A stretch of 64,000 nt of DNA from an uncultured Rickettsiales bacterium (GTDB lineage: Bacteria; Myxococcota_A; UBA796; UBA9615): positions 7,120 to 71,119 of the forward strand of contig CAYQEG010000008.1 in the NCBI GenBank assembly GCA_964416435.1. Reading direction: 5' to 3'. Under the pieces are notes generated by a model. The model saw only the letters and a program-made list of their open reading frames with translations. It did not search any database and had not been told where the DNA came from. Positions 2,916 to 55,129 of the stretch are shown here, piece after piece (positions within the stretch are counted from its first letter, which is position 1; every line of letters starts with the position of its first letter). Made by a program: the position numbers and the translations under genes.

Positions 2916-5816
2916 CTACTGGCAGCGGCCCCCGGAGAGCCCGTAGAGCTTGCTCAGTTCGGGGGCCTTGGCCTGGAAGCCGAGGTCGTCGACGAACACC
3001 GTGATGGCGTAGCAGCCCGCGGCGCGGCCCTTGAACTTCGCGCCGATCGTGTACTTCTGGACCACGCCCTTGGACGGCAGCCCATCGCTGCCCTCGTAGA
3101 CGAACTGCAGCAGGCTGTCCCCCTTGACCGTCGCCGCGGACCAGCGGCCGGTGGCGCCTCCGTCAGCGCACTCGCCCTTGTCGCCCTTGGCCGGATCGAA
3201 CGTCGGGCGCATCGGCGCGTCACCGACCCGGGCGCGACCCTCGAGCTTGGCGCCCTCGGGGTTGGCGATCATCACGCAGATCTTGTGCTCGGTGCTGACC
3301 GAGGCCGCGACGGTGCCGGTCAGGCTGACCGCCACGACGAGCTTGCTCCCGGTGGGCGGCTGGACCTCGACGTAGACCCGGTCGCCGGACGCCTGGGCCT
3401 GCAGCGCCTCGACCACCGCCGGCTCGCGCATGAGGCTCGTCACGTGGCGGGTCAGGTCCGCGGTCACCCCGGCGTCGATCGGCAGCGTCGCGACGATGGC
3501 GCCGCGGCGGCTCTGCCGGAACCGGAGGGTCCAGGTGCCGTCGGTGCTGCTCCCGCCGGAGATCTCCAGGGGGTTGGCGAACGCGTTCCGACCGGTGTCG
3601 AACGTCGCCTGTTCCACCACCTTGCCCGAGTGCCAGCGCCAACTGCCGGCCGCCGGCGGGCTGGTCGTCCCCCCGCGATCGGGCGTCGGCTCCCCACCCG
3701 GCGCGAGGTTCTCGGGCTCCTCCTCCAGGGGCGTCGGGGCCACGATCCGCAGCGACTCCGAGCGGCGCAGGAAGCTCAGCTCGTCGTCGATGAACAGCTC
3801 CGCTCCCTGCGGCAGGATGATGATGTCCGCGTCGACGACCTCACCGGGGGCTCCCCACAGCCGGTCCCAGTTCCCGCCCTGACGCTGCACTGAGAAGGTG
3901 TACACCCCGTCGCCGCCCGAGCTGCGGTCGAGCCGCTGGCGCTTCAGCCCCTCCTCCGCGATGAGCCACACCTCGATCGGCTGGATGGTCGACTCGGCGT
4001 AGGCGTCCCTCTTCTGGAGCCGCAGGAGCGCCGCGGACTCCGACTCGGCGTCGGAGAACGGGACGCAGGCGATGCCCGGGTTCCAGCCCGCGCCGCAGCC
4101 GGTGAACGTGTAGGCGTAGGGCTCGCCCAGCGCGAGCACGTCGGCCCCCGGGCCGCCGTCCCCGCCCGACTGGGTGGGGTCAGCGTCCTGGCGCGCCTGG
4201 AGCATGTTGAGCACAGCCAACCCCGCCACCAGCGCGGCGAGGGCGGCGAGCAGGAGGCCGACCAGCACGAGGCCCCGGCGGTCGCTGGCGGGAGCCTCCT
4301 CGTCTTCCTCTTCCCCCTCCTCGGCCATCGCGCCCCAGTCGATTCCGGATCCGGTCCCCTCGGGCGCCGGCGCCGACGCCCGGGCCGGGGCCGGCATCGG
4401 CTCCTCGTCGTCGAACGTCTGGGCGAGCTCCTTCATGCGCGCCGACTGGGCCGACGTGCCGATCTGGGAGGGCGGCACGGGGCTCGGAGGCAGCAAGCAG
4501 GGCTCGCGCTCGACGGTGAACACCGGCTCCGCGATCGGTTCCCAGCGGTCGTTGGGGCGCAGCGACGGCGGGGCGATCGCCTGGAGCGACATGAGCGGCA
4601 CCGGCCGGCTCATCTTGTTCTGGGCGAACACCTGGAACAGCAGCGTGTCCTCTTCGATGCCCGGGTAGAGCACCAGCCCGACCTGGAACGGCACCTCGTC
4701 GAGGTCGTACCCGACCTCCCCGAGGAACAGCGCGATGCGGATGTTGTGCTCGACCGGGTCGTAGGTGTCCCCCTCGCTGAACCGGTGGGGGGAGACGATC
4801 CGGACGACCCCCAGGATCTTCTGCTCCCCGGTGGCGGGGAACGTGGCGGCCATGAAGCGCAGCGCGCCGACCAGGTCCTGGCGCTCCTTGTCGGGGTCTT
4901 CGCCCAGGTGGCCCAGGAACCGGACGCGCTTGATCGTGACGTGGTTGCCGGTCTTGGCGCCGAGCAGGACGCCGATCCGGTCCTGGTGCGTCTCGACGAC
5001 CGCGCTGGCCATACCTTCGAGGATGGAGGCGACCGGCCCCTCGGCGCGGTCCTGCCCCAACGTCAGCCAGTCCGGCGCCTCCTTGCGGACCATGCCGACC
5101 TGGTGCAGGACCGGCGTGTCGTCCTGGGCGTCGTCGTCGTCGCCGTCCCCTTCACCCTCCTCGACCCCCTCAGCCTCTACGACTTGAAACTTCCAGGGGA
5201 GCGCCGCCGTCACCTCCCTCCGGCTCTTGGCTCCGAAGAGGTGCAGCCCCGGGAGCAGCGGCGTACCCCCGCCCCGGTTGACGAAGTAGCCGACGGACGT
5301 GTCCGCAGTGCCCAGCTTGGGCGCGAGCACCAGGGCGAACTGGTAGGGCCGGTGGAAGTCGCGGTGGGTACGGAGGTCGTACCGGGACAGGAACACCGAC
5401 ATGTTGGGGTGGGTGTGGTACCAGCCCAGGAGCAGCAGCTCCTCTCCTGCTTCCTTGGAGAGGTTCTCCATCTGGTCGATGAGGTCGTCCCAGACGGAGT
5501 ACGTGAACTTGAAGTGCACCGGCGAGCTGTCTTCGTCGCGGGCGACCGCGATGTGGCTCACCTTGATGAGCGAGTTGTCCTCGCTGGTGGTGCCCAGGAG
5601 GATCCCGGCGACCTCCTTGTCGATCTGGATCGAGCGCTGGGACTCGAACTGGAGCCGGCGCGCGACCTCCCAATCGAGGTAGAGCGTGGGCATCTCCGCG
5701 TCGATGTTCTCTTCCGCGACAGCCCCGACATACAGCGTTTTCGCAGGCACGGCGAACCGGACCGACGAGTCGCCGGTCTCCTCTTCCATGAAGATCGGTT
5801 CATCCACCGAGGTCAT
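2916..5816 (-). CDS. membrane protein with N-terminal tandem MPN+/MPN- (JAMM metalloprotease) domains and large C-terminal extracytoplasmic Cys-containing domain
   Basis: Translation from MTSVDEPIFMEEE contains the JAMM motif E...HTHPNMSVFLSRYD (HxHx7Sx2D). A second MPN-like domain without HxH follows. Then one TM segment (GLVLVGLLLAALAALVAGLAVLNML) and about 500 aa of Cys-containing domain. The ORF-track N-terminal extension to 7838 is antisense to the FHA-SLT gene and was rejected. Start ATG at 5816. Confidence 0.8.
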   Translation of the reverse strand: MTSVDEPIFMEEETGDSSVRFAVPAKTLYVGAVAEENIDAEMPTLYLDWEVARRLQFESQRSIQIDKEVAGILLGTTSEDNSLIKVSHIAVARDEDSSPVHFKFTYSVWDDLIDQMENLSKEAGEELLLLGWYHTHPNMSVFLSRYDLRTHRDFHRPYQFALVLAPKLGTADTSVGYFVNRGGGTPLLPGLHLFGAKSRREVTAALPWKFQVVEAEGVEEGEGDGDDDDAQDDTPVLHQVGMVRKEAPDWLTLGQDRAEGPVASILEGMASAVVETHQDRIGVLLGAKTGNHVTIKRVRFLGHLGEDPDKERQDLVGALRFMAATFPATGEQKILGVVRIVSPHRFSEGDTYDPVEHNIRIALFLGEVGYDLDEVPFQVGLVLYPGIEEDTLLFQVFAQNKMSRPVPLMSLQAIAPPSLRPNDRWEPIAEPVFTVEREPCLLPPSPVPPSQIGTSAQSARMKELAQTFDDEEPMPAPARASAPAPEGTGSGIDWGAMAEEGEEEDEEAPASDRRGLVLVGLLLAALAALVAGLAVLNMLQARQDADPTQSGGDGGPGADVLALGEPYAYTFTGCGAGWNPGIACVPFSDAESESAALLRLQKRDAYAESTIQPIEVWLIAEEGLKRQRLDRSSGGDGVYTFSVQRQGGNWDRLWGAPGEVVDADIIILPQGAELFIDDELSFLRRSESLRIVAPTPLEEEPENLAPGGEPTPDRGGTTSPPAAGSWRWHSGKVVEQATFDTGRNAFANPLEISGGSSTDGTWTLRFRQSRRGAIVATLPIDAGVTADLTRHVTSLMREPAVVEALQAQASGDRVYVEVQPPTGSKLVVAVSLTGTVAASVSTEHKICVMIANPEGAKLEGRARVGDAPMRPTFDPAKGDKGECADGGATGRWSAATVKGDSLLQFVYEGSDGLPSKGVVQKYTIGAKFKGRAAGCYAITVFVDDLGFQAKAPELSKLYGLSGGRCQ

Positions 5817-7676: not shown

Positions 7677-7683
7677 CGCGACC

Positions 7684-14112: not shown

Positions 14113-14808
14113 TCAGTCGGGGAGGAACTCCCAGTTGAACGCCACGTTCCCCGACTCGCCGGACTCGTCGTAGTAGTCCGTCACCTGCATCTTCAGGCAC
14201 CGCCCGTCGTGGGTCTCGACGACGTAGACGTGGCCGTAGGGGAACACCTCGTGGCCGCTGAAGCTGTACTCGAACCAGAAGGTGAGCGACGGGTTGTAGT
14301 CGATCTCCGCGAACGGGCCGGCCCCGTCGGGGTCGTCGAGCAGGTCGGGCACCCAGCCGTCATCGACGGTCGGCGTGCTGCCGCCGCAGCTGAGCACCCC
14401 GGTGTTGTCGGTGCCGTCGGCCTCGTCGAAGTCGCCGCAGCGGGCGGTGAAGTCGGCGAGGTCGGCCCACTCCTCGACCAGCCCCTCGACCGCGAGGATG
14501 GCCCCCCGGCCGACCGAGTCGGAGGACGCCGCGGTACCCGAGTTGGTGGCGATCACCCACTGGGAGATCGCCAGGTCCCAGCCCTCGTGCTGGGAGGGGT
14601 CGTCGGTGACGATCTCCTCTCCCGCGTCGTCCAGGAGCACCGCGTCCTCGTCGAAGGAGTAGAGCTTCCAGCTGCCCCGCTCCTGGCTGACCACGGTGAC
14701 CGCGCCGTCCACGACGCCGTCCCCCTTGCCGCACCCAGGCGTGGCCTGCAGTCCGAGCAGCGAGACGGCGACGACGGTGGCGGGCAGGAGGCTGCGGGCT
14801 CGGGTCAC
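14113..14808 (-). CDS. secreted lipoprotein, tentatively HmuY-like
   Basis: Signal plus lipobox-like LLGLQATPGCG. GWDLAISQWVIATNSG and a C-terminal ..CLKMQVTDYYDESG segment are reminiscent of the HmuY family. Weak assignment. Confidence 0.45.
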   Translation of the reverse strand: MTRARSLLPATVVAVSLLGLQATPGCGKGDGVVDGAVTVVSQERGSWKLYSFDEDAVLLDDAGEEIVTDDPSQHEGWDLAISQWVIATNSGTAASSDSVGRGAILAVEGLVEEWADLADFTARCGDFDEADGTDNTGVLSCGGSTPTVDDGWVPDLLDDPDGAGPFAEIDYNPSLTFWFEYSFSGHEVFPYGHVYVVETHDGRCLKMQVTDYYDESGESGNVAFNWEFLPD

Positions 14809-15650
14809 CGACGGGCCCGAGGCTTGGTGGGGGCGTCACCCCGGCGGTGGTCCGCTCCGTCGACCTGCACGAACTCGCACATCGAGCAGAGCCGGCTGTA
14901 GATCCGCTCCCCGATGCGCTCCACGAGCGACGGCATCTTGCTGCCGGCGGCGCCGGTCTTGCGGGAGTCGTAGCCGGGGTGATAGCCGCCGCCGTGGGAC
15001 GCCGCGGCGGTGTCGTGGGGGTCGAAGTTGGTGGTGCAGAGGGTGACCTTGCCGGCGTTGTAGCGGCGGCTCACCAGGTCATCGAGCACGGTCTCTTCCC
15101 ACTCGGTGCCCCGGCCCTTGCCGAGCTCGTCGATGACGAGCAGCTCGACGTCCACCAGGGGCATCATCAGGGCTGCGTCACCGCTGCCCGAGGAGAAGCT
15201 GCGCTTGAGGTCGGCGAGCAGGTTGCCGTAGTCGACGAAGCGGCAGCCGACCCCCTTGCGCAGCGTCAGCTCCCGGAAGATCGACACCGCGAGGTGCGTC
15301 TTGCCGGTGCCCACGGGGCCCCAGAACAGCAACCCCCGGTCGACCTTGGGGTAGCTCAGGGCGAACTCCTCGGCCCGGCGCTGGGCCATCTGCTGGGTCT
15401 TGGTGCGCGGCTTGAAGGAGCCGAGGGTGGCGCCCGCGAAGCGCTTGCCGATCTGCGCCTGGTTGAACATCTCGAGCCGCCGGCGGGCCTTGCGGCAGGG
15501 GCACGGGGCGAACACCTCGTACTCGCCGTCGAGGTGGTAGCGGCCTCCGGCGTCGTCACACTCGGGGCACCGCCAGTCCGGCGGATCGAACTCGGCCCGG
15601 CAGATGGCGCCGTCGGCGACGACGACGGGGGGCGGGGGGCGGAACGTCAC
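14805..15650 (-). CDS. DnaC/DnaI/IstB-like AAA+ helicase-loader ATPase with N-terminal zinc ribbon
   Basis: Walker A FWGPVGTGKTHLAVSIF, Walker B LLVIDELGKG. N-terminal CRAEF..CPEC..CPC zinc-binding region. GTG start at 15650 overlaps the upstream stop as GTGA, with GGAAGGA RBS. The ORF-track extension to 15851 was rejected. Confidence 0.7.
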   Translation of the reverse strand: MTFRPPPPVVVADGAICRAEFDPPDWRCPECDDAGGRYHLDGEYEVFAPCPCRKARRRLEMFNQAQIGKRFAGATLGSFKPRTKTQQMAQRRAEEFALSYPKVDRGLLFWGPVGTGKTHLAVSIFRELTLRKGVGCRFVDYGNLLADLKRSFSSGSGDAALMMPLVDVELLVIDELGKGRGTEWEETVLDDLVSRRYNAGKVTLCTTNFDPHDTAAASHGGGYHPGYDSRKTGAAGSKMPSLVERIGERIYSRLCSMCEFVQVDGADHRRGDAPTKPRARR

Positions 15651-16324
15651 GGGGCCAGTCCTTCCAGGCGATCGGGGTCGAGCACGGGGTCGTGCTCGCG
15701 CAGCCGCCGGCGCATCAGCTCGGCGACGGTCTGCTCCATCGCGTCGGGGTCCATCGCGTCGGCCGCCTCGCCCAGATCTGCGAGCACGGCGTCTCGCAGT
15801 GCGGACCGCTCGGCAACGGACAGCGCCCCGGCGCGATCGTCGTAGTAGCACCGGGAGGCCGCCAACAACAGGCAGAACGCCTCGTCTTCGTCGACCGACT
15901 CGGCCGCATCCTGCAGCGTCTGCCTCGCCCGCTCCAGGGCAGCGGCGCGGGCGCCCGTCGCCCCCTCCTGCGCGCCGAGCACGGAGGCGACGGCGAGGGC
16001 CAGCAGCCCCACCTCGGCCGGCGCCGGCTCGGTCGGCGACTCGCGGCTCCCCACCCCCCGCAGCCGCGCCCGCTCACCGGCCTTGGCGACGGCCGCCTTC
16101 ATCGACGACAGCGGCAGCCCCCGCGGCGGGTTCTTGCGCTTCTTGAGCTGCTCCCCCTTGCGCCGGAGCTCGGCGAGCACGGCGCCGAGGGGGTACCCGG
16201 CGTCGAACCACCGCTCGATCCAGTGCTGGTCCATGGGCGACAGGATGTGCCCCTCGTCCCGCAGATAGAGCACCAGCTCGGCGATCGCCGAGGCGTAGCG
16301 GTCGAGTCCGTCCAGCGCATCCAT
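15647..16324 (-). CDS. hypothetical protein translationally coupled to the DnaC/DnaI-like gene (possible loader partner)
   Basis: 225 aa. Its stop is fused to the downstream start as GTGA. High GC3. No clear motif. A DnaD/DnaB-like role is a guess from context only. Confidence 0.5.
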   Translation of the reverse strand: MDALDGLDRYASAIAELVLYLRDEGHILSPMDQHWIERWFDAGYPLGAVLAELRRKGEQLKKRKNPPRGLPLSSMKAAVAKAGERARLRGVGSRESPTEPAPAEVGLLALAVASVLGAQEGATGARAAALERARQTLQDAAESVDEDEAFCLLLAASRCYYDDRAGALSVAERSALRDAVLADLGEAADAMDPDAMEQTVAELMRRRLREHDPVLDPDRLEGLAP

Positions 16325-17503: not shown

Positions 17504-18109
17504 CTACTCCATCTCGAAGGCCATGCCTCCGTCGTCGTAGTAGTACTTCCGGAACGAGTCGATCTCGTCGGGGTGGTTGTACGCCCAGCCGGCCGCGTCC
17601 GGGTTCAGGTAGTCGCCGATCTCGACCCGACGGTAGAAGTCGTCGGGGTTCTCGTGGATGTCCTGCCAGGAGAGCACGCCCAGGAGCATGTCGGCGATGT
17701 CCGCGAGGTGCACCTCGAGCGTGTAGGTGCTGTCGTTGACGTAGCAGACGAACCCGTCCTTGGGGCTGATGTTGGGGTGCCAGACGTCGGAGACCGCGTA
17801 GATCTCGGGCTTGACCACCGGGTACGCCTCGGACAGGTAGATGTCGAAGCTGACCGTGTCCTTGATCGGGAAGTGGGCCAGCGGGAAGCCCTTGAGCTGG
17901 AACTTGCCCGAGGGGCGGCCCAGCGTCGGCTTGGTGAAGGTGTAGCGGTACTTGTACGGCAGGGCCTCTTCGCCCCACGTGAAGTCGAGTGGCTCCACCG
18001 CCACCACGGACTGCTCCACCATGAAGTTCTGCAGGATGTCCCACTCCGTCTGGAGCCGGCCCATCACGAACTTCGCGTCGCCCGACGGCTTGGTCTTCCC
18101 TCCGGCCAT
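17504..18109 (-). CDS. UBC-fold E2-like ubiquitin-conjugating enzyme homolog
   Basis: N-terminal helix RLQTEWDILQ, then canonical E2 active site VWHPNISPKDGFVCY (HPN + catalytic Cys) in UBC-like spacing. Last gene of the baseplate-E1 operon. Confidence 0.8.
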   Translation of the reverse strand: MAGGKTKPSGDAKFVMGRLQTEWDILQNFMVEQSVVAVEPLDFTWGEEALPYKYRYTFTKPTLGRPSGKFQLKGFPLAHFPIKDTVSFDIYLSEAYPVVKPEIYAVSDVWHPNISPKDGFVCYVNDSTYTLEVHLADIADMLLGVLSWQDIHENPDDFYRRVEIGDYLNPDAAGWAYNHPDEIDSFRKYYYDDGGMAFEME

Positions 18110-18128
18110 GACCTGTCTCCTGGTCCCG

Positions 18129-18422
18129 CTAGGCGGGGATGTGCTCCATCACGAGGCGGATCTCGTCGCCCTCTTCCACCCCGGCGTCGCCGAGCGACTC
18201 GTTGGGCTGGAGGATGTAGTGCTTGCGACCGCCGCTGCGACGATCGGGCACGGAGATCTTGAACGAGCGGGGATTCCCCTGCTCGTCGGTCATGTTCATC
18301 TTCAGGTTGCGAGCCAGAAACGGCGCCAGCTTGCTCGCAGGCACGTCGCTGCTGATCTTGACCGTTCGATTCGTTCCGCCGGTGGGCTCCTTGAGCCGCA
18401 CCTTCACCACATTGTCGCTCAT
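18129..18422 (-). CDS. small beta-grasp (ubiquitin-like) protein lacking C-terminal Gly-Gly
   Basis: 97 aa. VKVRLKEPTGG..RTVKISSDV..ASKLAPFLARNL..SFKISV..EGDEIRLV fits a beta-grasp pattern. Ends ..MEHIPA. Sits between the membrane zinc-ribbon gene and the E2. Confidence 0.55.
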   Translation of the reverse strand: MSDNVVKVRLKEPTGGTNRTVKISSDVPASKLAPFLARNLKMNMTDEQGNPRSFKISVPDRRSGGRKHYILQPNESLGDAGVEEGDEIRLVMEHIPA

Positions 18423-18541
18423 CCTGATCCTCCGCCGCCGCCAGAGGCCCTCTTGTCCAGAGGGAAGCAGGCCGCGGGATCGCCCGATAGGGCGCTGATC
18501 CTATACCACACAGCCGGCTCGTCGGCCCCTGACCACCGCCG

Positions 18542-19216
18542 CTAGCGCCGTCCCATTCCCTTGAGATCACGCTCCCGAAGCTGCTGGTAGCAGCGCCGGC
18601 AGCGCCCATCGAGCAGGTGCACGTAGTCCTTGAGATAGACCGCGTGACACACCGAAGTGATGTTCAGCCGGTTGTGGCAGACCACGTACTGGTCGTGCTC
18701 TCGGTTGACGACCTGGTTGGTCAGCAGACAGACCAGGTCCTCCGGCTCCGTGGAGTAGTCGATGTCCTCCTCTTCGGACTCCTGCAGGTCCTCGTCCTCG
18801 TCGATGTCTTCCTGCTCGGTCTGCACGTAGTGCTTCAGGCTCAGCGCGCCGAGCAGGGCGCCGAACACGCCGCCCACCAGGCCCAGCGCGAGCGGCAGCA
18901 CGTCCAGCTTGAAGTCACCCTCCCCCGGCACCGTCACCATGCCGGTGACCGTAGCGAGCCCGAACATCACCGCGAACACGACCGTGCCGATCGCGAAGGT
19001 CAGGAACATCCCGCCCATCTGGCGGCCCAGCAGCATCCGCACCGACGCCGACGACAGCGCGCCGATCGCCAGCGGGGGCGCCAGCGCCAGCCCGATCCAG
19101 GGGGTCCCGTCCCGGTACTGCACCACGCCCCAGGCGATGGTGAACAGCACGAGCACGAACAACGTGGGCAGGACGTCGCCGATGCTGCCCATGCCCTCTT
19201 CGTCGGACTTAGCCAC
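18542..19216 (-). CDS. 4-TM membrane protein with acidic linker and C-terminal Cys/His zinc-ribbon-like domain
   Basis: Four hydrophobic helices. DEDEDLQESEEEDIDYS linker. C-terminal C..CHNR..CH..C..C cluster. Overlaps the E1 gene stop by 8 nt. Confidence 0.6.
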   Translation of the reverse strand: MAKSDEEGMGSIGDVLPTLFVLVLFTIAWGVVQYRDGTPWIGLALAPPLAIGALSSASVRMLLGRQMGGMFLTFAIGTVVFAVMFGLATVTGMVTVPGEGDFKLDVLPLALGLVGGVFGALLGALSLKHYVQTEQEDIDEDEDLQESEEEDIDYSTEPEDLVCLLTNQVVNREHDQYVVCHNRLNITSVCHAVYLKDYVHLLDGRCRRCYQQLRERDLKGMGRR

Positions 19217-20564
19217 CCATCACCTCTGCTTCATCGCCCGTCAGCTCGACCGCGACGCGCCCCTTGCCCCCGTACAGCAGGAAGATCTGCAGCTTCGGGA
19301 AGCCCAGTTCGCTCAACGGCCGGTCGATCAGCTTCTTGTCGAACACCCGCAGCGCCCGCTTGTAGTCGGGACGCGCTTCATTGTCGCAGTTGCGACAGGA
19401 GAGGTCCAAGTCGCGGGACCGCTGAGGCTTGAAGTACTCCTCGCGGTGGCCGCACTGGTGGCAGTACAGCTCCGTCACCAGGTCGTAGCCGATGCGCAGC
19501 GACACCTTGTTGACGTCGACCTCGAGCAGCTCGGCGCCTTTCTCGAGCAGCTGGCGCAGCGTGGTGCCGTCCGCCGTGAACTCCGGGACCTCCGCCACCT
19601 CGCCCCAGTGGTCGTGCCCCTCGCAGCCGTCGGTCCGGTTGCGGACCTGGGCCTCGAGGTAGGGCGAGCCGCCGCCGAAGTAGTACTGCACGCCGTGGGG
19701 CATCTCGAGCTGCGCGGGGGGCTCGTCCATGTGGACGTCGTGCAGCAGCTTGAGCGCCTCCTGGGCCATCATCGCGCCGCTCATCGCCGCCGCCAGCGGC
19801 GACGTCGGCTGACGCTGCATCTCGCGGATCGCCTCCGCGAGCGGAGCGCAGGACGGCGCGTACGGCAGGTGCTGCTGGTAGCGCATCGCCGCGTCCATCG
19901 TGCACTCGAAGCAGGCGCCCCCCGGCGGATCCCAGCAGGTCACGCGCCAGCTCAGCTCGCCGATGCCGGCGTCCAGCCAGGGCTTGCCCAGCGCCGCCGC
20001 GATCCGGTTGAAGCCGACCCGGGCGTCGATGCTGTCGACAACGCTGCAGAGCACGTCCATGCGCCGGAACACGCCCATGCCGATCTCGAACCGCACGTCC
20101 GCCGACATCGGACGCAGGTCCAGGTCGGGATCCATGTCCGCGAGCCGCTCCGCCGCCACCTCGACCTTCGCGCGGCCGATGTCCCGCGGGCGGAACAGGA
20201 CCGACTTGGCGAGGTTGCTGCGGTCGATGTCGTCGAAGTCGGCGAACCACAGGTGGCCCACGCCGAGCAGCGTCAGGTTCTTGAGCACCTCGTTGCCGAG
20301 GGCGCCCGCGCCGGCGCAGAAGACCCGCCCGTTGCGCACGATGTCCTCGCGGAAGTGCGCCATCAGCTTGTAGATCGCGAACCGGTCGGAGCTGTCGTAC
20401 TCCATGCGGCGACGCTGACGTTCGCCGAACGTCATGTCGGCGACGCCGTCCTCGTCCACCGACAGGTCGGCGAGGGGGTCGTCCTCGTCGGGGAGCTCGT
20501 TGCCGTCCTCGTCGTACGCGACGATGAAGACCTCGACCTCCTCTTCGTTCTCGGGCGTGCTCAC
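19209..20564 (-). CDS. E1-like (ThiF/MoeB/HesA family) adenylating enzyme with C-terminal zinc ribbon and Gly-Gly terminus
   Basis: Rossmann motif VFCAGAGALGNEVLKNL, then ..FADFDDIDRSNLAKS. CFEC and CHQC..CRNC Cys pairs. Final residues ..LTGDEAEVMGG. Confidence 0.85.
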   Translation of the reverse strand: MSTPENEEEVEVFIVAYDEDGNELPDEDDPLADLSVDEDGVADMTFGERQRRRMEYDSSDRFAIYKLMAHFREDIVRNGRVFCAGAGALGNEVLKNLTLLGVGHLWFADFDDIDRSNLAKSVLFRPRDIGRAKVEVAAERLADMDPDLDLRPMSADVRFEIGMGVFRRMDVLCSVVDSIDARVGFNRIAAALGKPWLDAGIGELSWRVTCWDPPGGACFECTMDAAMRYQQHLPYAPSCAPLAEAIREMQRQPTSPLAAAMSGAMMAQEALKLLHDVHMDEPPAQLEMPHGVQYYFGGGSPYLEAQVRNRTDGCEGHDHWGEVAEVPEFTADGTTLRQLLEKGAELLEVDVNKVSLRIGYDLVTELYCHQCGHREEYFKPQRSRDLDLSCRNCDNEARPDYKRALRVFDKKLIDRPLSELGFPKLQIFLLYGGKGRVAVELTGDEAEVMGG

Positions 20565-20573
20565 CGGTCTCTC

Positions 20574-21533
20574 CTACTCGGCGTCCAGCTCCTCGTAGTA
20601 GATGCCGCGGATGTTCTCACGGTCCTTGCCGGCGGCCTTGATGACGCCCTGGAGCGCCTTGCTCATCCAGTTGAGCCGCAGGTCGAACTTGTCCGACTTC
20701 GGGCGGTTCTCCTGGATCTTCTTGACCGCCTGCCAGCTGGTCTTGAAGTGCGGGAACAGCCCCTTGCGCACGCCCTCCTTGCGGAGCCCCACCAGGAAGC
20801 GCTGCTCGCGCTCCATCAGGCGGGTGAACATGTCGCAGAGCGCCTCCTCGCTGACGCCGGCGCTCAGCAGGTTCGCCTCGGTGCCGATCAGCGTCTGCAG
20901 GAACAGGTGCGCCCGCACGTCGGCGACCGGCTTCTGCTCGACCAGGTAGGCCTTCATCGTCAGCTCGATCGACGCGTCGACGTACTCGCTGAGCTGGCGG
21001 CGCAGGTTGCCCAGGTCCTCCGGCTCGGGACGACGGGCGAGCTGCACGTAGCGCAGGTCGACGCCGCCGGTGACCTTCTGGCCGTCGGCGACCCGGATCC
21101 GGCCGATCTCGACGCCCGCCCGGATCTCCTTGTCGTTGAAGGAGATCTCGAACGACTCGACCGTGCGGGTCTCCTGCCGTTCGGTGCTGTTGTAGGCCTG
21201 ACGCTTGCTGTCGGAGTCGTCGAACTCCTTGTACGTCAGGAAGATCATGTACTTGCCGGGGGTGTCCGGCACCGGCGCCGAGCGCGCCCCCTCGGGCACC
21301 ACCACGTCGTTGCCGTTGGGGTCGATGGCGTACCCCTCGGTCACCTCGATGCAGTCGCCCTGGGCCGTCTGCACGACGTCCGGCTTGAGCCCGAACACCA
21401 CCCCCGAGCCCGCGACGAACTGGTTGCTCAGCCGCCGCTTCCACAGGAAGTAGGACTGCTCGTCCCGCAGGTCGACGTCCGACAGGCACATCCCCTCGAA
21501 GGGGCGGAGCCGCTTGTTTTGAATCGCTTCCAT
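20574..21533 (-). CDS. hypothetical protein in baseplate operon (319 aa)
   Basis: Between the P2-I-like gene and the E1 gene with 9-16 nt gaps. No recognised motif. Possibly a wedge/fiber-attachment component by position. Confidence 0.5.
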   Translation of the reverse strand: MEAIQNKRLRPFEGMCLSDVDLRDEQSYFLWKRRLSNQFVAGSGVVFGLKPDVVQTAQGDCIEVTEGYAIDPNGNDVVVPEGARSAPVPDTPGKYMIFLTYKEFDDSDSKRQAYNSTERQETRTVESFEISFNDKEIRAGVEIGRIRVADGQKVTGGVDLRYVQLARRPEPEDLGNLRRQLSEYVDASIELTMKAYLVEQKPVADVRAHLFLQTLIGTEANLLSAGVSEEALCDMFTRLMEREQRFLVGLRKEGVRKGLFPHFKTSWQAVKKIQENRPKSDKFDLRLNWMSKALQGVIKAAGKDRENIRGIYYEELDAE

Positions 21534-21549
21534 CAGGTTCCCCGTTCGC

Positions 21550-22602
21550 TCAGGCCAGCAGCACGGCTCGGCCGAGCGCCGCGTTCGGGCTGAGCTGCGC
21601 CGGATCGCACAGCACCAGTCCGTTGTGAATCACTTCTTCGTCCTTGAAGCAGATCACGAAGTCCAGGTGGGCCGGACGCTCGTTCTGCGCGACGCGCGCT
21701 ACGCGCTCGAGCAGCTCGGCGAGCCGGTCCCGGTACCGGGAGACCAGGGCCTCCCGGTCGTCCAGGACGATCGTGAAGTACTCCTCCCGCGAGAAACGCG
21801 GAGAGGTCAGCAGGTGCTCCCCTGCGTGGGTCACGTACGGCAGCGATCCGAGGGCCTTCTCGTCCTCGTCGTCGATCTCGCCGTCCTCCGTCGGAGGCCG
21901 TGACAGCGCGCAGTTGCCCAGCTCCATCGGCTGGGGGCCACGCCGGAGCACGATGTGCGTGTCCAGCCCGGTCAGCGTCTTGATCATCTCCGAGAGGCCG
22001 CGGGTCGTGCCGCGCCACCGGAACAGCTCGGTCGCCCGGCGCAGGAAGATGCGTCGGCGGGTGACCGGGATGCGCTCGTCGAGCGTGAAGTCCAGCCACG
22101 ACGCGAGCCACGGCAGGAACTTCGGGTCCATCTTGACCGGGTCGACGATCGCCGACCGGTCGGCCACCGCCGAGTCGGTCCGGTGGGCGAGCGTCTGGAA
22201 CACCAGCAGGTAGCGCCGAAGGAACTCCGCCTGGCCGACGCCGGCGCCGCCCTCGCGCTGGATGCCGCGGCTGTACAGCTGCGGCAGGTACTGCCCGTAG
22301 CCGGACGTGGCGACCAGCAGGCTCACCCGGTCGCGGGCCTCCAGCTGGGCGTAGTGCACCGCCTGGCCTTCCCGCTCGAAGCGGACCTCCCCCGTCTCGG
22401 GGGCGAGCTTGAGGATCGTCGGCGCGGTCAGCCCGCGGGGCCGGATCTTGACCCCGATGACCCGCCCTTCGAGGAGCCGTCGGACCTCCGGCACGTACTC
22501 GACGTCGCACTGGTTGCCCAGCGCGTGACGCACGATCGCCACCCCGGCCTGCGCGGGCAGGCCTTCGCGGAGGATCCGCTCCAGGGTGGCGAGCTGCTGC
22601 AT
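21550..22602 (-). CDS. phage tail protein I-like (gp7-like baseplate wedge) protein, tentative
   Basis: Directly abuts the Baseplate_J gene (stop/start adjacent). Size and position match P2 gpI/Afp12-like genes. Assignment rests on synteny rather than strong motifs. Confidence 0.45.
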   Translation of the reverse strand: MQQLATLERILREGLPAQAGVAIVRHALGNQCDVEYVPEVRRLLEGRVIGVKIRPRGLTAPTILKLAPETGEVRFEREGQAVHYAQLEARDRVSLLVATSGYGQYLPQLYSRGIQREGGAGVGQAEFLRRYLLVFQTLAHRTDSAVADRSAIVDPVKMDPKFLPWLASWLDFTLDERIPVTRRRIFLRRATELFRWRGTTRGLSEMIKTLTGLDTHIVLRRGPQPMELGNCALSRPPTEDGEIDDEDEKALGSLPYVTHAGEHLLTSPRFSREEYFTIVLDDREALVSRYRDRLAELLERVARVAQNERPAHLDFVICFKDEEVIHNGLVLCDPAQLSPNAALGRAVLLA

Positions 22603-25600
22603 CTAGTCGCTGTCCAGGTCCACGGCGCACTCGGGCCGCTCGCGGGTTCCGGCGAGCACGAACAGCTGTCCGGGTCGACCGTGACGCGGGAGGTCTCGGA
22701 CGTAGCCGGCCGGTGCACCCGGAGGCGGCGCCCGCATCACGCGGCACTCTTCGACGTGCCGGATCTCCGGGATCTCCTTGAGGATGTGCTGCAGGTCCTG
22801 CGCCCGCGGCACCTCGCCGAAGGGCCAGCCGGCGCCGTCGACGCCGCCGGTGAACGGATCCAGGAACCGCGCGATCCAGGCCTCCGCCCGCTCACGCACG
22901 CCCGAGGGGTTCGTGCGCGGGATGAGCAGGCAGCGCATGTCGACCGTCACCGGCACGAGCTGCGCCATCTGCACCCGCACCTCGGTGTTGATCAGCGCCC
23001 GCTCCTGCACGTACTCCTGCACGACGCGGAGCAGGCCGATCTCCTCGGCGTCGGGGATCTCGCCCGTCTTCTGGTCGCGCTTGGGCAGCACCGTCAGCCG
23101 CACCACCCACGGGTCGTCGCCCGGGTCCTTGTAGGCGTGGCAGCGCGCCAGGGTGCCCGACGCCTCCTTGGCGATGACCTCGAAGTCCTCGGTGGTCACC
23201 GCGCGGGTGCGCCCGGTCAGGGCCTTGGGGGCCCGCTTGATCAGGTCGTCGATCGACTCGACGTCCCGCCCGCCGGTGGACGCGAACGGGTTGCTCACGC
23301 GGACCTGGGAGCCGTACGTCGGGCACACCGCGATGGTCGTCGCCGGCACGTTGCCGGCCGACCCGTCGGTGGTGAAGTAGTGACCCACGACCAGGTTGTG
23401 GGTGCCCGCCTTCGGGATCGCGCCGTGCACGCCGTCCCCGAACCGGACCACCCCGCGGACCGGGTCCACCGCGTAGACGCGGTCGTTGCGATCGGCGTCG
23501 CGCAGGTCGTCGTCCAGGCTGAACTCCCAGATCCTCTGGGAGTCACCCTCGCTGACGTCCACCTCGACGAACGACTCCTTGTGGAGGTCCTCCGGAAGCG
23601 ACGCCAGCAGGTCGGCCGACGGAACCACCGCCGGCTGGTGCAGCAGCTGCACCTCCTGGTTGGGGATGCCGTAGGCGCTGAACTTCTCCAGCTCGCGCCG
23701 CTGCAGGTTGCTCACCTCGGCCGCGTTGAGCAGGACGTGGGTCAGCCGCGGGTAGCGGATGGGTCCCCAGGTGCCGTCAGCCCGCTTGACCGCGTCCGGC
23801 AGCTTGCACCGCAGCCAGCGCACGTTGCCGCCGCGCCCCTCGCCTCGCGCCGGGATCACGACGCGCAGGAAGCCCGAGCCGCGGAAGTCGAACGTCGTCG
23901 GGAGCGACCGCAGCTGCAGCCAGCGCTCACCGTCCAGGTACTCCCAGGTCGCGTTGCGCTCCGCCCCCTTGAGCGGCTCACCGGTCATCCGGAAGTAGAT
24001 CGACACCTCCTCGCCCACCGGCAGCGGCCGGTCGACGCACAGGTAGATCGAGCGCCCGGAGCGGTTGGTCTCCACCGGAGCGATCCAGGGGAAGCGCGTC
24101 GCCTTCTTGGAGGTCAGCGAGCGGCTGACGAGCGGGCGGATCGAGGTGAACCGCGGGTTGTTGCGGTTCAGGTTGACCCCGAGGGCCTCGAAGTCGTGCA
24201 GGACGTGGCGGTACCAGTCCTCGCCCTCGACGACCTTCTTGCGGCGCTTGCCGCCGCCCCGGTGCTGGATCCGGATGCCGAAGATCTGGGGGTGGTAGTG
24301 CAGGTCGCGCTTCACGAAGATCCCGGTCGCGCCCGGGGTCTTCGGCTTCGCCCCCTTCTTGGTCTCCTCAGGCGGCGCCTCGCGCGTCTCACCGACGTTG
24401 ACCTCGACCTGGTCGGTCAGGTCGCAGTTCACCAGCACCAGCCGCAGCCAGTACGTCTCGGTGCCCTGGAGCGCCACCTGGGCGATCCCCTTGAACTGCT
24501 TGGCCGGCTGCAGGCTCATGCGCACCGTGAAGAACTGGTCCTCCTCGCTGAACGATGGCTGCATGTGGGAGAAGCAGAACTCGGTGAACGCCTTGCCCTC
24601 GTCGTCCTCGAGCTTGACGTCACGCCAGCGGGACTTGGCGCGGTACTGCAGCTTGAAGCTGTACCGGTCGAGGTCGTCCTCGAGTCCCCACTCGCCCGCG
24701 CGCGGGAACTTGTAGTTCTTGAAGAAGTAGCTGAACTCGACGCCGATGCGCTCGACCGTGTCCTCGAACACGTCGGCGCCCAGGTACAGCGCGTGGTTCT
24801 CCGCCGGGGCGATGCTGAACTCGCTGTTGGAGTACGGCTCGACCGGCGGGCTCTCCAGGCTGGTCCGCTCCAGCCGGTTGATGTCCGGCCCCTTGAGCAG
24901 GTCGACGCGGATCTGCCGCTCCAGCGACACCACCAGCTCGCCTTCGTCGGTCAGCGCGGCGATGTCGACGGCGCGGATGCGGGTCGTCTGGAAGCGGGCC
25001 GGGGTGGCGCAGTCGGCGGGCAGCGGCCCGTGGATCCAGGCGTCGAGGCCGCGGATCTGCAGGTTGCGCTCGGGCAGCTCGGCCCAGCGGCCGTCCTCTG
25101 TGAAGTAGAACCACTGCTGGCCCGGCACGTAGGTCGGCGCGACGCGCAGCGACAGGCGCGGGAAGCGGATGATGAACGCTTCCTTGCGGCCGGGGCGGAT
25201 CGGCTCGCTGAACCGGAACTCCATGGTGTTCGGCCCGGTGGCCGAGACCAGCAGCTCCATCGGGTGGCTGTCGCCGCGGCGGGGGCGGAAGCGGCCCTTG
25301 GGGTGCTCGCGGATCAGCTCCAGGTAGTACTTCTCGAACTCCAGCGCGCCGCGGACCCAGTACTTCGCCAGGTTGCGGCCGCCGTCGGTGACCAGCTCGG
25401 TCTCCTTGTCGTCCCAGTCGGCGATGGGGGCCTGCGGCTCCAGGCCCGCCGCGAGCAGGTTGCGGCTGTCCGGCCAGGCGACCCACTCGTCTCCCACCCG
25501 GTGCTCCCAGCGGAAGAACTTCTGCAGGTCGAACAGCTTCCCCTGCTCGTTCCCCTTGAGCTCCACGTGCAGCGTCACCTGGTCGTCGGTGTGCAGCCGC

Positions 25601-26226
25601 TCGATCAGGTTGTGACCCAGGTACAGGAACTGGTCGTAGATGTTGGCGGACAGGTTGTTCCGGTCGGGATCCGGCTCCAGCAGCGGCACGCCGGCCGTCT
25701 CCCCCGCCGCCTCGCCCAGCTCGTAGACCGGGGGATGCTCGGGGTCGTCGTCGATGATCCGCTCGATCGCCAGGACCTCGCGGTTGTCCTCGGACTCGCC
25801 CTCGATCTTCAGGCCGATGATCCGCTCCAGGCGGGGCCCGCAGACCGTCAGGTCACGCACGGTGATGAAGCGGACCTCGTCGACGTCCTCGGTCTGCTGG
25901 GTCGCCACCTCGGTCAGCTTGGGCACCCGCACCGGTCCCGAGGAGTCGTTGATCTTCTGGAACGAGACCAACGTCGAGCTGGGCAGGGCCGAGCCCTGGC
26001 GCTCGCCGATGAAGTTGAGGAAGTGGATGTAGGTCGCGTCGGGGACGCGGTTGAGCCGGTAGATGACCATCTCGGTCATCCACGCGAACAGCTGGACCAG
26101 GGTGATGCCCGGGTCTGAGTCGTTGAAGTTGGTCCACTCGGGGCAGTAGACCGGGATCAGCTGCTTGGCGCGTTCGACGATCTCGGCGTAGCTGAGGTCG
26201 TCCAGGTTGGGCGCATCAATCGGCAC
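22603..26226 (-). CDS. Baseplate_J (P2 gpJ / T4 gp6-like) baseplate wedge protein, extended 1207 aa
   Basis: N-terminal signature ..YAEIVERAKQLIPVYCPEWTNFNDSDPGITLVQLFAWMTEMVIYRLNRVPD is characteristic of the Baseplate_J family in P2-like phages, Afp and PVC-type contractile systems. Overlaps the gp25 gene by 11 nt. Confidence 0.85.
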   Translation of the reverse strand: MPIDAPNLDDLSYAEIVERAKQLIPVYCPEWTNFNDSDPGITLVQLFAWMTEMVIYRLNRVPDATYIHFLNFIGERQGSALPSSTLVSFQKINDSSGPVRVPKLTEVATQQTEDVDEVRFITVRDLTVCGPRLERIIGLKIEGESEDNREVLAIERIIDDDPEHPPVYELGEAAGETAGVPLLEPDPDRNNLSANIYDQFLYLGHNLIERLHTDDQVTLHVELKGNEQGKLFDLQKFFRWEHRVGDEWVAWPDSRNLLAAGLEPQAPIADWDDKETELVTDGGRNLAKYWVRGALEFEKYYLELIREHPKGRFRPRRGDSHPMELLVSATGPNTMEFRFSEPIRPGRKEAFIIRFPRLSLRVAPTYVPGQQWFYFTEDGRWAELPERNLQIRGLDAWIHGPLPADCATPARFQTTRIRAVDIAALTDEGELVVSLERQIRVDLLKGPDINRLERTSLESPPVEPYSNSEFSIAPAENHALYLGADVFEDTVERIGVEFSYFFKNYKFPRAGEWGLEDDLDRYSFKLQYRAKSRWRDVKLEDDEGKAFTEFCFSHMQPSFSEEDQFFTVRMSLQPAKQFKGIAQVALQGTETYWLRLVLVNCDLTDQVEVNVGETREAPPEETKKGAKPKTPGATGIFVKRDLHYHPQIFGIRIQHRGGGKRRKKVVEGEDWYRHVLHDFEALGVNLNRNNPRFTSIRPLVSRSLTSKKATRFPWIAPVETNRSGRSIYLCVDRPLPVGEEVSIYFRMTGEPLKGAERNATWEYLDGERWLQLRSLPTTFDFRGSGFLRVVIPARGEGRGGNVRWLRCKLPDAVKRADGTWGPIRYPRLTHVLLNAAEVSNLQRRELEKFSAYGIPNQEVQLLHQPAVVPSADLLASLPEDLHKESFVEVDVSEGDSQRIWEFSLDDDLRDADRNDRVYAVDPVRGVVRFGDGVHGAIPKAGTHNLVVGHYFTTDGSAGNVPATTIAVCPTYGSQVRVSNPFASTGGRDVESIDDLIKRAPKALTGRTRAVTTEDFEVIAKEASGTLARCHAYKDPGDDPWVVRLTVLPKRDQKTGEIPDAEEIGLLRVVQEYVQERALINTEVRVQMAQLVPVTVDMRCLLIPRTNPSGVRERAEAWIARFLDPFTGGVDGAGWPFGEVPRAQDLQHILKEIPEIRHVEECRVMRAPPPGAPAGYVRDLPRHGRPGQLFVLAGTRERPECAVDLDSD

Positions 26227-26623
26227 CGATGAACTCCTGCAGCTGGACCAGGTGGACCAGGTTCTGGTGGTTGTTCGACTTGCGGACCGTGTAGCCGATG
26301 TGGAGGCGAATCTGGTTCGGGTTGTCCCGATCCGGCCTGGCGACCACTTCGTCGACGTCGATCCGCGGCTCCCACTTGGCCAGCGCCGCCCGAACCATCG
26401 ATTCGGACTGGTGACGCGTGCCGGCGGAGTTGGTGGAGAAGATCAGGTCCTGCAACGGACAGCCGAACTCGGGGAGCATCTGCCGCTCGCCCGGCTGGGT
26501 GTTGAGGATGATGTGGATGCACTCCGCGATGTTCCGCTCGTACTCGGACAGGTAGACACCACCCCCGTCGTCACGCGGACGAACAGGAAACGACCACCCT
26601 CGGCCGAGGTACTCGCGACTCAC
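26216..26623 (-). CDS. GPW/gp25-like baseplate wedge protein
   Basis: MSREYLGRGWSFPVRP..SEYERNIAECIHIILNTQPGERQMLPEFGCPLQDLIF is the gp25/GPW family signature. Confidence 0.85.
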   Translation of the reverse strand: MSREYLGRGWSFPVRPRDDGGGVYLSEYERNIAECIHIILNTQPGERQMLPEFGCPLQDLIFSTNSAGTRHQSESMVRAALAKWEPRIDVDEVVARPDRDNPNQIRLHIGYTVRKSNNHQNLVHLVQLQEFIGAD

Positions 26624-26889
26624 AGACCCCCTCCATTCGAGGCCCTATTTGGCCCCTCGCCCGTCCAGGACTCGGGGTGATTCAGCGGATGCAACCGATG
26701 GAGCGGATGGGGGTCCGTCCAGGACCCCCAGGTGCTGTTCCGGCGTCGCCGGTCGAGCGCCCCTCCGTCCTCCCCCGCGCACGGGGATGGGGATTCTCCG
26801 TCATGCGGCCATCGGGTGCAAGCCGACCGAAGCGACCGCTGAGTGGCACAGGGCGTGCAAGCCCCGCAGGCACAGGTCAGGGAGCCCCG
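26624..26889. promoter_or_regulatory. divergent promoter region between baseplate-Ubl operon and hemerythrin-like gene
   Basis: 266-bp gap between the first gene of the minus-strand operon (gp25) and the plus-strand hemerythrin-like gene. Confidence 0.3.
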
Positions 26890-27312
26890 ATGCACATCAA
26901 CTCGACCAGTCCCCCGAGCGAAGAGCGCTCCGCCCGAGAGCGGATCGCAGCCGACCACCGCGAGGTGCTGGGCTTGCTCAAGCAGCTGGAGACCCACACC
27001 CAGCCGTCCGGGATTCGGGAGATCGCCTACGAGTTGACCACCCTGCTCGACCGCCACTTCAAGGACGAAGAAGGCGTGTACGGCGTATTCGCCCAGATCG
27101 AAGAGGCCCGGCCGGACCTGCAGGGGCAGGTCTCCCGCCTGCGGGATCAACACCGGGCGATCGAGGAGTTGATCGGCACCATCCGCTTCGACGACGACGC
27201 CCACGCGCTCAGCGATCGGGACCGCGTCGTGCAGATGATCCGTGAACACGAGGCGGCTGAGACCGAGCTGCTCACCGAGGCCATCTACGAAGACCTGGGC
27301 GTCGGCGACTGA
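26890..27312 (+). CDS. hemerythrin-like (HHE cation-binding) domain protein
   Basis: MHINSTSPP.. preceded by RBS GGGAG. Four H/E-containing helices (DHREVLGLL, LDRHFKDEE, LRDQHRAIEEL, REHEAAETELL) typical of the hemerythrin HHE domain. The ORF-track start at 26677 was rejected. Confidence 0.6.
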   Translation: MHINSTSPPSEERSARERIAADHREVLGLLKQLETHTQPSGIREIAYELTTLLDRHFKDEEGVYGVFAQIEEARPDLQGQVSRLRDQHRAIEELIGTIRFDDDAHALSDRDRVVQMIREHEAAETELLTEAIYEDLGVGD

Positions 27313-27388
27313 CCCAGCGAGGCTGTGTGAAATCGCACAGTCCGTGCCGGATCCCACACGAACGAACAGACCAGGACCGGAGGAGTTT

Positions 27389-30231: not shown

Positions 30232-30232
30232 C

Positions 30233-33871: not shown

Positions 33872-33880
33872 GAGCGCAGC

Positions 33881-41055: not shown

Positions 41056-41056
41056 G

Positions 41057-44571: not shown

Positions 44572-44600
44572 CGACAGCTCCTCGGTGGGCGGGCGCCGGC

Positions 44601-55128: not shown

Positions 55129-55129
55129 C

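Follow-up and report, generated by a model that had tools for sequence, protein, structure and literature searches.

Does a bacterial genome that encodes a eukaryote-like ubiquitin-conjugating (UBC) active site also encode a pathway that would use it and, if so, on what might that pathway act? The question is raised by a gene at 17504..18109 (minus strand) in a 64,000-nucleotide (64-kb) stretch of DNA, hereafter the window, from contig CAYQEG010000008.1 of an uncultured Rickettsiales bacterium (assembly GCA_964416435.1). An earlier note, made from the letters of the window alone, had read the product of this gene as a rare bacterial E2 enzyme with a canonical HPN...Cys active site, placed beside an E1 enzyme and a ubiquitin-like protein (Ubl), and as the mark of a conflict system. 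We find that the gene encodes a UBC-fold E2 and that it closes a four-gene cassette, in the order E1, transmembrane (TM) protein, Ubl and E2, which on balance is probably a membrane-tethered Ubl-conjugation cascade.

The E2 open reading frame (ORF) encodes 201 residues, among them the peptide VWHPNISPKDGFVCY; it opens with an ATG and has an AGGAGA Shine-Dalgarno sequence 6 nt upstream. The GC content of its third codon positions (GC3) is 0.98 and that of its second positions (GC2) is 0.36, resembling the adjoining genes in a window of 72% GC. The stretch of the protein around the active site, SDVWHPNISPKDGFVCYVND, contains the motif HPNISPKDGFVC (17744..17779, minus strand), corresponding to His111-Pro112-Asn113 ... 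Cys122, and a scan of all six frames of the window found this to be the sole match to HPN-x(6-10)-C. In an alignment of 22 E2 homologues, H111, P112, N113 and C122 are all invariant. Equally invariant are EAYPVVKPEIYA, which lies just before the HPN and corresponds to the 'YPxxPP' region of E2 enzymes, and an NPDD-like motif downstream of the active site. The HPN-to-Cys spacing is that of UBE2K, and the segment aligns residue for residue with HPNISSVTGAIC of human UBE2K.

Comparisons of profile, sequence and structure all lead to the same fold. Residues 87-134 of the window protein match positions 48-96 of the Pfam family UQ_con (PF00179) with an E-value of 1.5e-5 and a score of 25 bits, against a gathering cut-off of 27 bits, and 22 of the 27 E2 homologue clusters carry a precomputed PF00179 match. 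A phmmer search against all PDB chains returned E2 enzymes only, with UBE2K at the top (E 1.4e-3). An AlphaFold2 model built from the family alignment (predicted local distance difference test score, pLDDT, 81.4; predicted template-modelling score, pTM, 0.79) has a helix at residues 12-32, four strands and C-terminal helices at 135-190, with a 27-residue insert (about 59-85) within the four-strand part and a helical extension at the C-terminus; the first of these helices is the UBC-like N-terminal helix that had been expected from the sequence. Searching the PDB with this model, Foldseek found 245 matches below 1e-3 (best E 5.5e-6), which include UBE2S, UBE2K, UbcH5, Ubc7 and Rad6. UBC-fold proteins account for nearly all of the top 50, which are overwhelmingly eukaryotic E2s and have probabilities of 1.0 and template-modelling scores (target) mostly of 0.5-0.7. 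Finally, an exhaustive hidden Markov model (HMM) search of 1.84 billion representatives recovered one full-length 50%-identity cluster of the E2 family, and the next-best matches (E about 1e-5) were all UQ_con proteins, in keeping with the claimed rarity of bacterial UBC-fold E2s. Given the agreement of the Pfam, PDB, Foldseek and HMM searches, we conclude that the window protein is a UBC-fold E2 with a canonical HPN...Cys site, that this fold assignment is sound and that the family is a very isolated one. The invariance of the active-site residues argues further that the protein is very probably a genuine, cysteine-dependent catalytic E2.

High-GC DNA yields many long spurious ORFs, and antisense ORFs overlap this region, both of which would favour the view that the HPN...Cys motif arose by chance or that the ORF is no real gene. 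That view is already refuted by a GC3 of 0.98 with the low GC2 of real genes, by the Shine-Dalgarno sequence, by 27 homologue clusters at 73-87% identity with invariant motifs, by the confident fold prediction and by the single motif match over six frames; its probability is negligible. The long ORFs that run antisense to the operon's real genes (17573-18262, 18909-21593 and 21955-26118, all on the plus strand and up to 1387 residues long) fail the GC3 test and are the usual artefact of 72% GC DNA.

The E2 gene is the last of eight closely packed minus-strand genes, separated by gaps of 0-16 nt except for one 119-nt spacer. The E1 (19209..20564) and the Ubl (18129..18422) that the earlier note had named as its neighbours are both present, and the E1-TM-Ubl-E2 order is constant in all loci examined (in the genomes of 13 GTDB species, on 18 metagenome contigs and in additional assemblies) save one, designated L017. 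In that locus (1-1699) the most divergent homologue of the TM protein (44% identity) follows an E1, and an opposite-strand protein kinase/FGE-sulfatase gene stands after the TM gene instead of the Ubl and E2 genes. The cassette family is restricted to a single marine lineage of metagenome-assembled genomes. Across loci the Ubl is 87-97% identical, the E2 73-87% and the E1 68-85%, whereas the flanking genes are 41-79% identical. Such marked conservation relative to the flanks is what one would expect of a modifier whose partners are many and fixed, and not of an element in an arms race. Around the cassette lies a conserved block comprising an outer-membrane-like protein, a DnaC/IstB-like ATPase, HmuY, an ABC transporter, PilZ, a pair of SLT paralogues and a JAB-domain protein; this synteny is stable over about 20 distinct loci of the lineage, and the base composition of the cassette is native to its surroundings. 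Scans of IMG/VR with the E2 and E1 profiles found zero relatives, as did tblastn searches with the E2 against plasmids (PLSDB) and phages (INPHARED).

The E1 (minus strand) is a 451-residue ThiF-family adenylating enzyme with one adenylation domain (Pfam ThiF 1.1e-39). In the PDB its family profile matches UBA7 best (9e-40), followed by UBA1 (about 1e-32), SAE2 (6e-29) and UBA3 (5e-28), and scores ThiF (3e-23) and MoeB (6e-21) behind these eukaryotic E1s. The GxGxxG and Mg-binding Asp motifs of the enzyme are invariant. So is Cys239, which follows a CxEC motif in the presumed crossover loop and is also present in the 32%-identical homologue from a distant cassette, L042, described below. The protein further contains an invariant four-Cys cluster (C368, C371, C390 and C393) and a conserved C-terminal domain of ~45 residues (...ELTGD), possibly a ubiquitin-fold domain. 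Since the window E1 ends in ...EVMGG, we considered whether it might be an E1-Ubl fusion; this idea was rejected because the final residues vary between orthologues (GGQG, RGR, RVV).

The Ubl (minus strand) is a 97-residue YukD-like beta-grasp protein that scores 27.4 bits against the Pfam YukD cut-off of 27. A PDB sequence search with it left ubiquitin unmatched even at an E-value of 10. The protein ends in ...IRLVMEHIPA, and the terminal ...HIPA is invariant in 14 orthologues, without any extension after Ala97. Four residues stand beyond the last strand, as in the LVLRLRGG of ubiquitin, so that they occupy the place of the LRGG tail. The terminal Ala stands where distant relatives carry Gly: these end in ...HLVRKTVAG plus 30 residues (L042), in ...RVSTRVING* or in ...FLYETAAGG plus 12 residues. 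A C-terminal Ala is a documented substrate end for E1/E2 enzymes in the type II class of the anti-phage signalling systems based on cyclic oligonucleotides (CBASS; PMC10097602). Together, the position of the terminal Ala and the CBASS precedent support the view that the protein is a conjugatable, pre-matured Ubl.

The 119-nt spacer (18423..18541, minus strand) separates the TM and Ubl genes. It contains a conserved TG-n-TATA(G/T)A motif at about 18501-18509, resembling an extended -10 element, and a short C-run/G-run hairpin at about 18448-18464, just ahead of a GGAGGA Shine-Dalgarno sequence. The spacer is 72-218 nt long in 27 distinct loci, and its consensus folding (RNAalifold) is weak, at -4 kcal/mol, with compensatory changes in three of eight pairs. 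An Rfam search of the cassette region returned only sub-threshold microRNA noise and no family. The spacer may hold an internal promoter and a structured leader in the 5' untranslated region of the Ubl and E2 genes.

The TM gene (18542..19216, minus strand) encodes a 224-residue membrane protein that we regard as a putative membrane-anchored RING/U-box-like E3. An acidic linker follows its four TM helices and leads to a C-terminal Cys/His domain in which C163, C180, H181, C190, H191, C206 and C209 (full-length numbering) are invariant, and the distribution of charge over its loops, as read from the sequence, puts this domain in the cytoplasm. The AlphaFold2 model of the domain has a pLDDT of 74. 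About half of its top 50 weak fold matches in the PDB, none of them significant by Foldseek (best E 0.41), are RING, U-box or PHD structures, among them TRAF6, Ring1b/Bmi1, RNF4, AvrPtoB, LubX, Bre1 and Ufd2. The proposed E3 role is drawn from position, architecture and ligand pattern rather than from demonstrated homology.

A candidate for the deconjugating enzyme lies outside the operon, at 2916..5816 on the minus strand. The ORF listed there (2916-7838) over-extends the gene, the true start of which is probably the ATG at 5816. In the 966-residue membrane protein, the JAMM motif (E...HTHPNMSVFLSRYD) of the N-terminal MPN+ domain (Pfam JAB 3.9e-15), which is of eukaryote/archaeal type, is intact; a TM helix lies mid-protein, and the C-terminal region is large and extracytoplasmic. 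In the PDB its best match is the Rpn11-like protein of Caldiarchaeum (6fjv, 4e-8), followed by AMSH, Rpn11, BRCC36 and CSN5. The gene is 11.7 kb from that of the E2, with about ten unrelated genes between, and is syntenic wherever the flank is visible. Its link with the cassette is only suggestive, because all the intervening genes are syntenic too; with that proviso, the JAB protein would be the likely eraser of the Ubl tag.

The architecture extends beyond the marine lineage. On a 3.5-kb Joint Genome Institute contig of soil type (L042, 43-3168), the four genes stand in the same order: E1, TM protein (here, too, with a putative zinc domain), YukD-type Ubl and E2. The E2 of this contig (P0033) is 29% identical to the window E2 over 161 residues (pairwise E 8e-14) and its E1 33% identical to the window E1 over 396 residues (E 3e-60). 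Its 231-residue TM protein has a C-terminal CxxC...CxxC zinc domain with only a weak LIM match, and the 30-residue extension of its Ubl past ...TVAG implies a processing peptidase there. On a second, low-GC contig (L046, 142-2913), a YukD-like Ubl is fused to an HPN-Cys E2 (P0041) and is followed by a JAMM-motif protein and a possible AAA-type ATPase, an arrangement reminiscent of type I Bub except that the E2 is a cysteine enzyme.

The four operon genes ahead of the E1, all on the minus strand, resemble parts of a phage-tail baseplate. The first gene of the operon (26216..26623) encodes a gp25/TssE-like baseplate wedge protein of 135 residues (Pfam GPW_gp25 1.3e-27, 95.8 bits against a cut-off of 27.2; PHROG baseplate wedge). 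It is followed by a 1207-residue baseplate J/gp6/Cis11-like protein (22603..26226; Pfam Baseplate_J 1.4e-13; PHROG baseplate wedge; TIGR02243 254.6 bits against 155.8) and a 350-residue P2 gpI/CIS12-like baseplate wedge (21550..22602; Pfam Tail_P2_I 2.7e-7; NCBIfam CIS12 4.6e-17; TIGR02242 62 bits against 51.9). The last of the four is a 319-residue, tail-fibre-like CIS13 protein (20574..21533), the N-terminal 140 residues of which match NF053767 of NCBIfam (E 5e-13, below the curated cut-off). The gene for this Cis13-like protein, a narrow family of 19 clusters, ends 9 nt ahead of the E1 start. PDB sequence searches with the Cis13-like protein and with the TM protein gave nothing meaningful. 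Compared with contractile injection systems (CIS; Afp, PVC and Cis), the four genes match the Cis9, Cis11, Cis12 and Cis13 types in their usual order, whereas the window's CIS12- and CIS13-like proteins fall well short of the family models in length and miss their cut-offs by a wide margin. Among the coding ORFs scanned in the 64-kb window there are no sheath, inner tube, spike, tape-measure, ATPase or cap genes. Nor are there sheath, tube, spike or ATPase genes upstream of gp25 in four other contexts, L013, L021 and L022 among them. The genes upstream of gp25 vary from hemerythrin and PFOR in the window to methyltransferases (L021 and L022) and a membrane protein (L013). We conclude from this variation, and from the missing sheath, tube, spike and ATPase genes, that the module is an orphan four-gene unit.

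How closely the module is tied to the cassette can be counted in 21 distinct loci with at least 1.3 kb visible upstream of the E1. The Cis13-like gene is directly adjacent to the E1 in 14 of these, and in two others (L004 and L022) the module lies about 6.5 kb upstream on the same strand behind inserted genes, so that 16 of 21 loci are linked overall. The two ~6.5-kb insertions (L004 982-7505 and L022 11014-17275) are independent; one contains a PilT-like ATPase and other genes, the other GT87 and a 1177-residue protein, and the junction between module and cassette appears to be a recombination-prone spot. In the literature searched, no paper links a baseplate or a contractile injection system to E1, E2 or Ubl genes. 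Two candidates were dismissed on inspection: a ~400-residue gene before the E1 in L001, taken as a possible substitute for the Cis13-like gene, is an unrelated secreted or lipoprotein-like ORF, and in L021, a divergent baseplate locus, the final gene does not encode an E1.

On the reading that we favour, a membrane-tethered cascade, the E1 would adenylate the free C-terminal carboxylate of the 97-residue Ubl at Ala97, which would need no processing because the protein already ends at the Gly position of its relatives. The Ubl would then pass to Cys239 in the crossover loop of the E1 and from there to Cys122 of the E2, which might dock on the conserved C-terminal domain of the E1; Asn113 of the HPN would stabilise the oxyanion during aminolysis. 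Held at the inner membrane by the four-TM protein, the Cys/His zinc domain would serve as an E3-like adaptor that steers the E2~Ubl to membrane-proximal lysines, and the likely eraser would be the JAB protein, which is Rpn11-like, membrane-anchored and encoded 11.7 kb away. The co-transcribed orphan gp25, J, Cis12-like and Cis13-like proteins are the leading, unproven candidates for substrates or partners. A more specific proposal, in which a vertically inherited Ubl cascade is dedicated to a host-domesticated CIS fragment and tags or assembles a gp25/J/Cis12/Cis13 complex at the inner membrane, seems to us doubtful.

Several observations weigh against such a cascade or against its service to the baseplate proteins. 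The E2 falls short of the UQ_con cut-off. At residue 120 the E1 has a Lys (SNLAKSVLFR), where the SNLxRQ ATP-binding motif of E1, ThiF and MoeB enzymes has a conserved Arg; the Lys is fixed in the marine lineage, whereas the L042 homologue retains the Arg. The Ubl lacks a canonical Gly-Gly, and YukD itself is reported to be unconjugated (Iyer 2006, PMC1779556). For the putative E3, the fold matches lack significance, a Pfam scan of 40 TM-protein homologues at E-values up to 10 found no RING, U-box or zf family, and an hhalign comparison of the TM-protein family with its positional counterpart in L042 found no similarity. The JAB gene is outside the operon and its linkage is inseparable from general synteny. 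Finally, five of the 21 loci (L001, L005, L007, L009 and L019) have no module upstream of the E1, and the cassette is equally conserved in them, which means that a partnership with baseplate proteins encoded in cis cannot be an obligatory one. Some of these points would be explained if there were no conjugation at all and the YukD-like Ubl were a structural adaptor of a membrane complex, as in type VII secretion, with the E1 and E2 serving as scaffolds or working on another carboxylate. The association of YukD with membrane machinery (PMC1779556), the Pro-Ala end of the Ubl and the Arg-to-Lys change in the E1 are in line with this explanation. However, the HPN, Cys122 and, in the E1, Cys239 and the GxGxxG and Mg-binding Asp motifs do not vary at all, which would be unexpected in pseudo-enzymes; the Ubl tail is invariant too and has the length of ubiquitin's, the Ubls of homologous cassettes have Gly as their last residue or as the last one before a removable extension, and a C-terminal Ala is functional in CBASS. 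We therefore hold the absence of conjugation to be highly improbable.

If the cassette is a conjugation system, it might still be an anti-phage or conflict system akin to Bil, in which, once a phage infects, the Ubl is put on phage tail or baseplate proteins and spoils virion assembly, with the host-encoded baseplate proteins acting as decoys, sensors or targeting scaffolds. A tie to phage defence marks the bacterial E1/E2/Ubl pathways characterised so far (type II CBASS and Bil, with genomic context as the evidence for Bub), and the target of Bil is a phage tail protein (bioRxiv 10.1101/2023.09.04.556158). Phage-tail-like genes adjoin the cassette, and Aravind and colleagues have proposed that operons with E2, E3 and JAB genes are mobile selfish or conflict elements (PMC3417536). 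The distribution of the cassette, however, is stable and syntenic, not patchy or mobile, and it is under very strong purifying selection, with Ubl identities of up to 97%. PADLOC gave generic E1 and JAB domain matches only, with the E2 at E 0.0025 and no system-specific match: its BilD model matched the window E1 locally, over about 60 residues (4e-6), and its Bil models had no match in the Ubl or in the E2. In place of the IAD-AAD-CYS architecture of BilD, the E1 has one adenylation domain, and the E1, E2 and JAB proteins are nearer to eukaryotic or Caldiarchaeum proteins than to ThiF/MoeB structures or to the PADLOC models tested (E1-E2, BilD and JAB). There is no JAB gene in the operon; the window's scanned ORFs include no defence genes, those around the cassette being PFOR/Rnf, ABC transporter, PilZ and cytochrome genes; and IMG/VR, the plasmids and the phages hold no relatives. 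We consider a Bil-like role quite unlikely. Of the earlier reading, then, the UBC-fold E2 beside an E1 and a Ubl stands, as does its rarity, while the stable synteny, native composition, strong conservation, want of mobile-element relatives and neighbourhood just described leave the step from the E2 to a conflict system unsupported. Conversely, the link with the baseplate module could be merely inherited gene order, the cassette then providing general regulatory or quality-control tagging of membrane proteins unrelated to CIS. The module-less loci in which the Ubl, E2 and E1 are just as conserved, the insertions that split the modules in L004 and L022, the conserved promoter-like motif ahead of the Ubl and E2 genes and the absence of baseplate genes from the 3.5-kb L042 contig would all fit such an explanation. 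Against it, the Cis13-like gene stops within tens of bases of the E1 on the same strand in 14 loci, the pairing is kept even though the genes above gp25 change (hemerythrin, methyltransferase, glycosyltransferase-like), and both modules are limited to the same narrow lineage. We think inherited gene order an unlikely full account of the linkage.

Systems of this general type have been predicted before. Burroughs, Iyer and Aravind reportedly predicted in 2011 prokaryotic E1/E2/RING-E3/JAB systems with YukD-like Ubls, of which the cassette would be a variant with new features. Going by such descriptions, it shares with those systems separate E1, E2 and Ubl genes together with a Zn-finger protein, an E2 with the eukaryote-type oxyanion-hole Asn (HPN), a YukD-type Ubl, an extra conserved C-terminal domain in the E1 and a JAB gene in the genome neighbourhood. 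Those operons are described as mobile, usually with the JAB gene inside, whereas the cassette is vertical and syntenic, with the JAB gene 11.7 kb away; it is also unlike them, as described, in a putative E3 that is fused to four TM helices and is not demonstrably RING, in the Pro-Ala end of the Ubl and in the orphan CIS baseplate module.

A second point of comparison is the E1-E2-srfp(RING)-ubiquitin-Rpn11 operon of Caldiarchaeum subterraneum and Asgard archaea (Hennell James et al. 2017, PMC5654768). Like that operon, the cassette is a compact set in which a eukaryote-like E1, an HPN-type E2 and a small zinc-finger E3 candidate come with a JAMM peptidase; the best PDB match of the JAB protein is the Rpn11-like protein of Caldiarchaeum, and the E1 and E2 match eukaryotic enzymes best. 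Unlike it, the cassette has a YukD-like modifier without detectable similarity to ubiquitin in the PDB and no pro-protein with a Gly-Gly end for Rpn11 to cleave, its E3 candidate is membrane-anchored, its JAB protein is a 966-residue membrane protein encoded outside the operon, and its host is a bacterium. In composition the cassette is closest to the Caldiarchaeum/Asgard operon, and close also to the systems of the 2011 prediction as described. It differs from both in its membrane-anchored E3 candidate, Pro-Ala end, non-mobile inheritance with the JAB gene outside the operon and orphan baseplate partner.

The experimentally studied bacterial pathways are further away. Bil, too, keeps its Ubl, E2 and E1 genes separate, uses cysteine chemistry and is connected with proteins of phage-tail type, but has its JAB protein (BilC) in the operon, an E1 that carries an inactive and an active adenylation domain in tandem together with a CYS domain, no E3 and a Ubl with Gly at its end; the window, in contrast, has a 451-residue E1 with a single adenylation domain, no operonic JAB gene, an E3 candidate and an Ala end. 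Bub (6E/DUF6527) and Cap2 of type II CBASS share E1/E2-type conjugation in bacteria. Bub works through oxyesters on Ser (E2) and Tyr (E1) and has fused proteins, a DUF6527 protease and an E2 without C-terminal helices, whereas the window has Cys122 with HPN in the E2, Cys239 in the E1, C-terminal helices in the E2 and unfused genes throughout; DUF6527 has no match among the operon proteins. Cap2 is an E2-E1 fusion that acts on a CD-NTase without a Ubl, whereas the E1 and E2 of the window are separate, and no CD-NTase was detected among the scanned ORFs of the window. We conclude that the cassette is not Bil, not Bub and not CBASS Cap2.

Other parts of the window were recorded alongside. Directly downstream of the cassette region, at 14805-16324 (minus strand), an IstB/DnaC-like AAA ATPase is paired with a 225-residue partner without a Pfam family; the pair is syntenic in nearly all loci, and there is no sign of an IS21 transposase beside it. 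Tandem paralogues with SLT lytic transglycosylase domains (5931-7676 and 7684-9393, plus strand) are conserved in related loci. A hemerythrin-domain gene (26677-27312) lies by a large PFOR/Rnf-type electron-transport cluster (27242-42276, plus strand), which is divergent from the baseplate operon and contains two very long ORFs (30233-33871, 1212 residues, and 34543-38076, 1177 residues) with ferredoxin-type domains and a high GC content at first codon positions (GC1). Two clusters of multihaem c-type cytochromes follow (43303-49014, minus strand, and 51231-63174, plus strand), in which the product of 43303-44622 has collagen-like repeats, that of 57677-60709 is fused to a cytochrome b561-like membrane domain and that of 60706-63174 has NHL repeats.

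A 2024 survey found eukaryote-type HPN-Cys E2s in bacteria only as single instances in four phyla (PMC11354881). Such E2s are thus very rare in bacteria, and the bacterial pathways that have been studied by experiment (CBASS, Bil and Bub) depart from the eukaryotic layout. A compact, unfused set of E1, E2, putative E3 and Ubl, in which the E1 and E2, like the JAB protein nearby, score closest to eukaryotic and Caldiarchaeum enzymes, would therefore make a tractable bacterial model for the origin of the three-enzyme cascade and of its oxyanion-hole chemistry. The cassette also bears on whether YukD-type beta-grasp proteins are conjugated and on the native use of a Pro-Ala terminus by an E1; if the proposed chemistry is correct, this would be the first conjugated YukD-type Ubl. 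If the baseplate proteins are indeed its partners, it would be the first case of Ubl control over a phage-tail-derived machine from the host's own genome, and the recurrent link with an orphan baseplate hints at an unexplored use of phage-tail parts. For the lineage itself, the stable, non-mobile inheritance of the cassette and its membrane anchoring suggest a cellular rather than a defence role for bacterial Ubl tagging.

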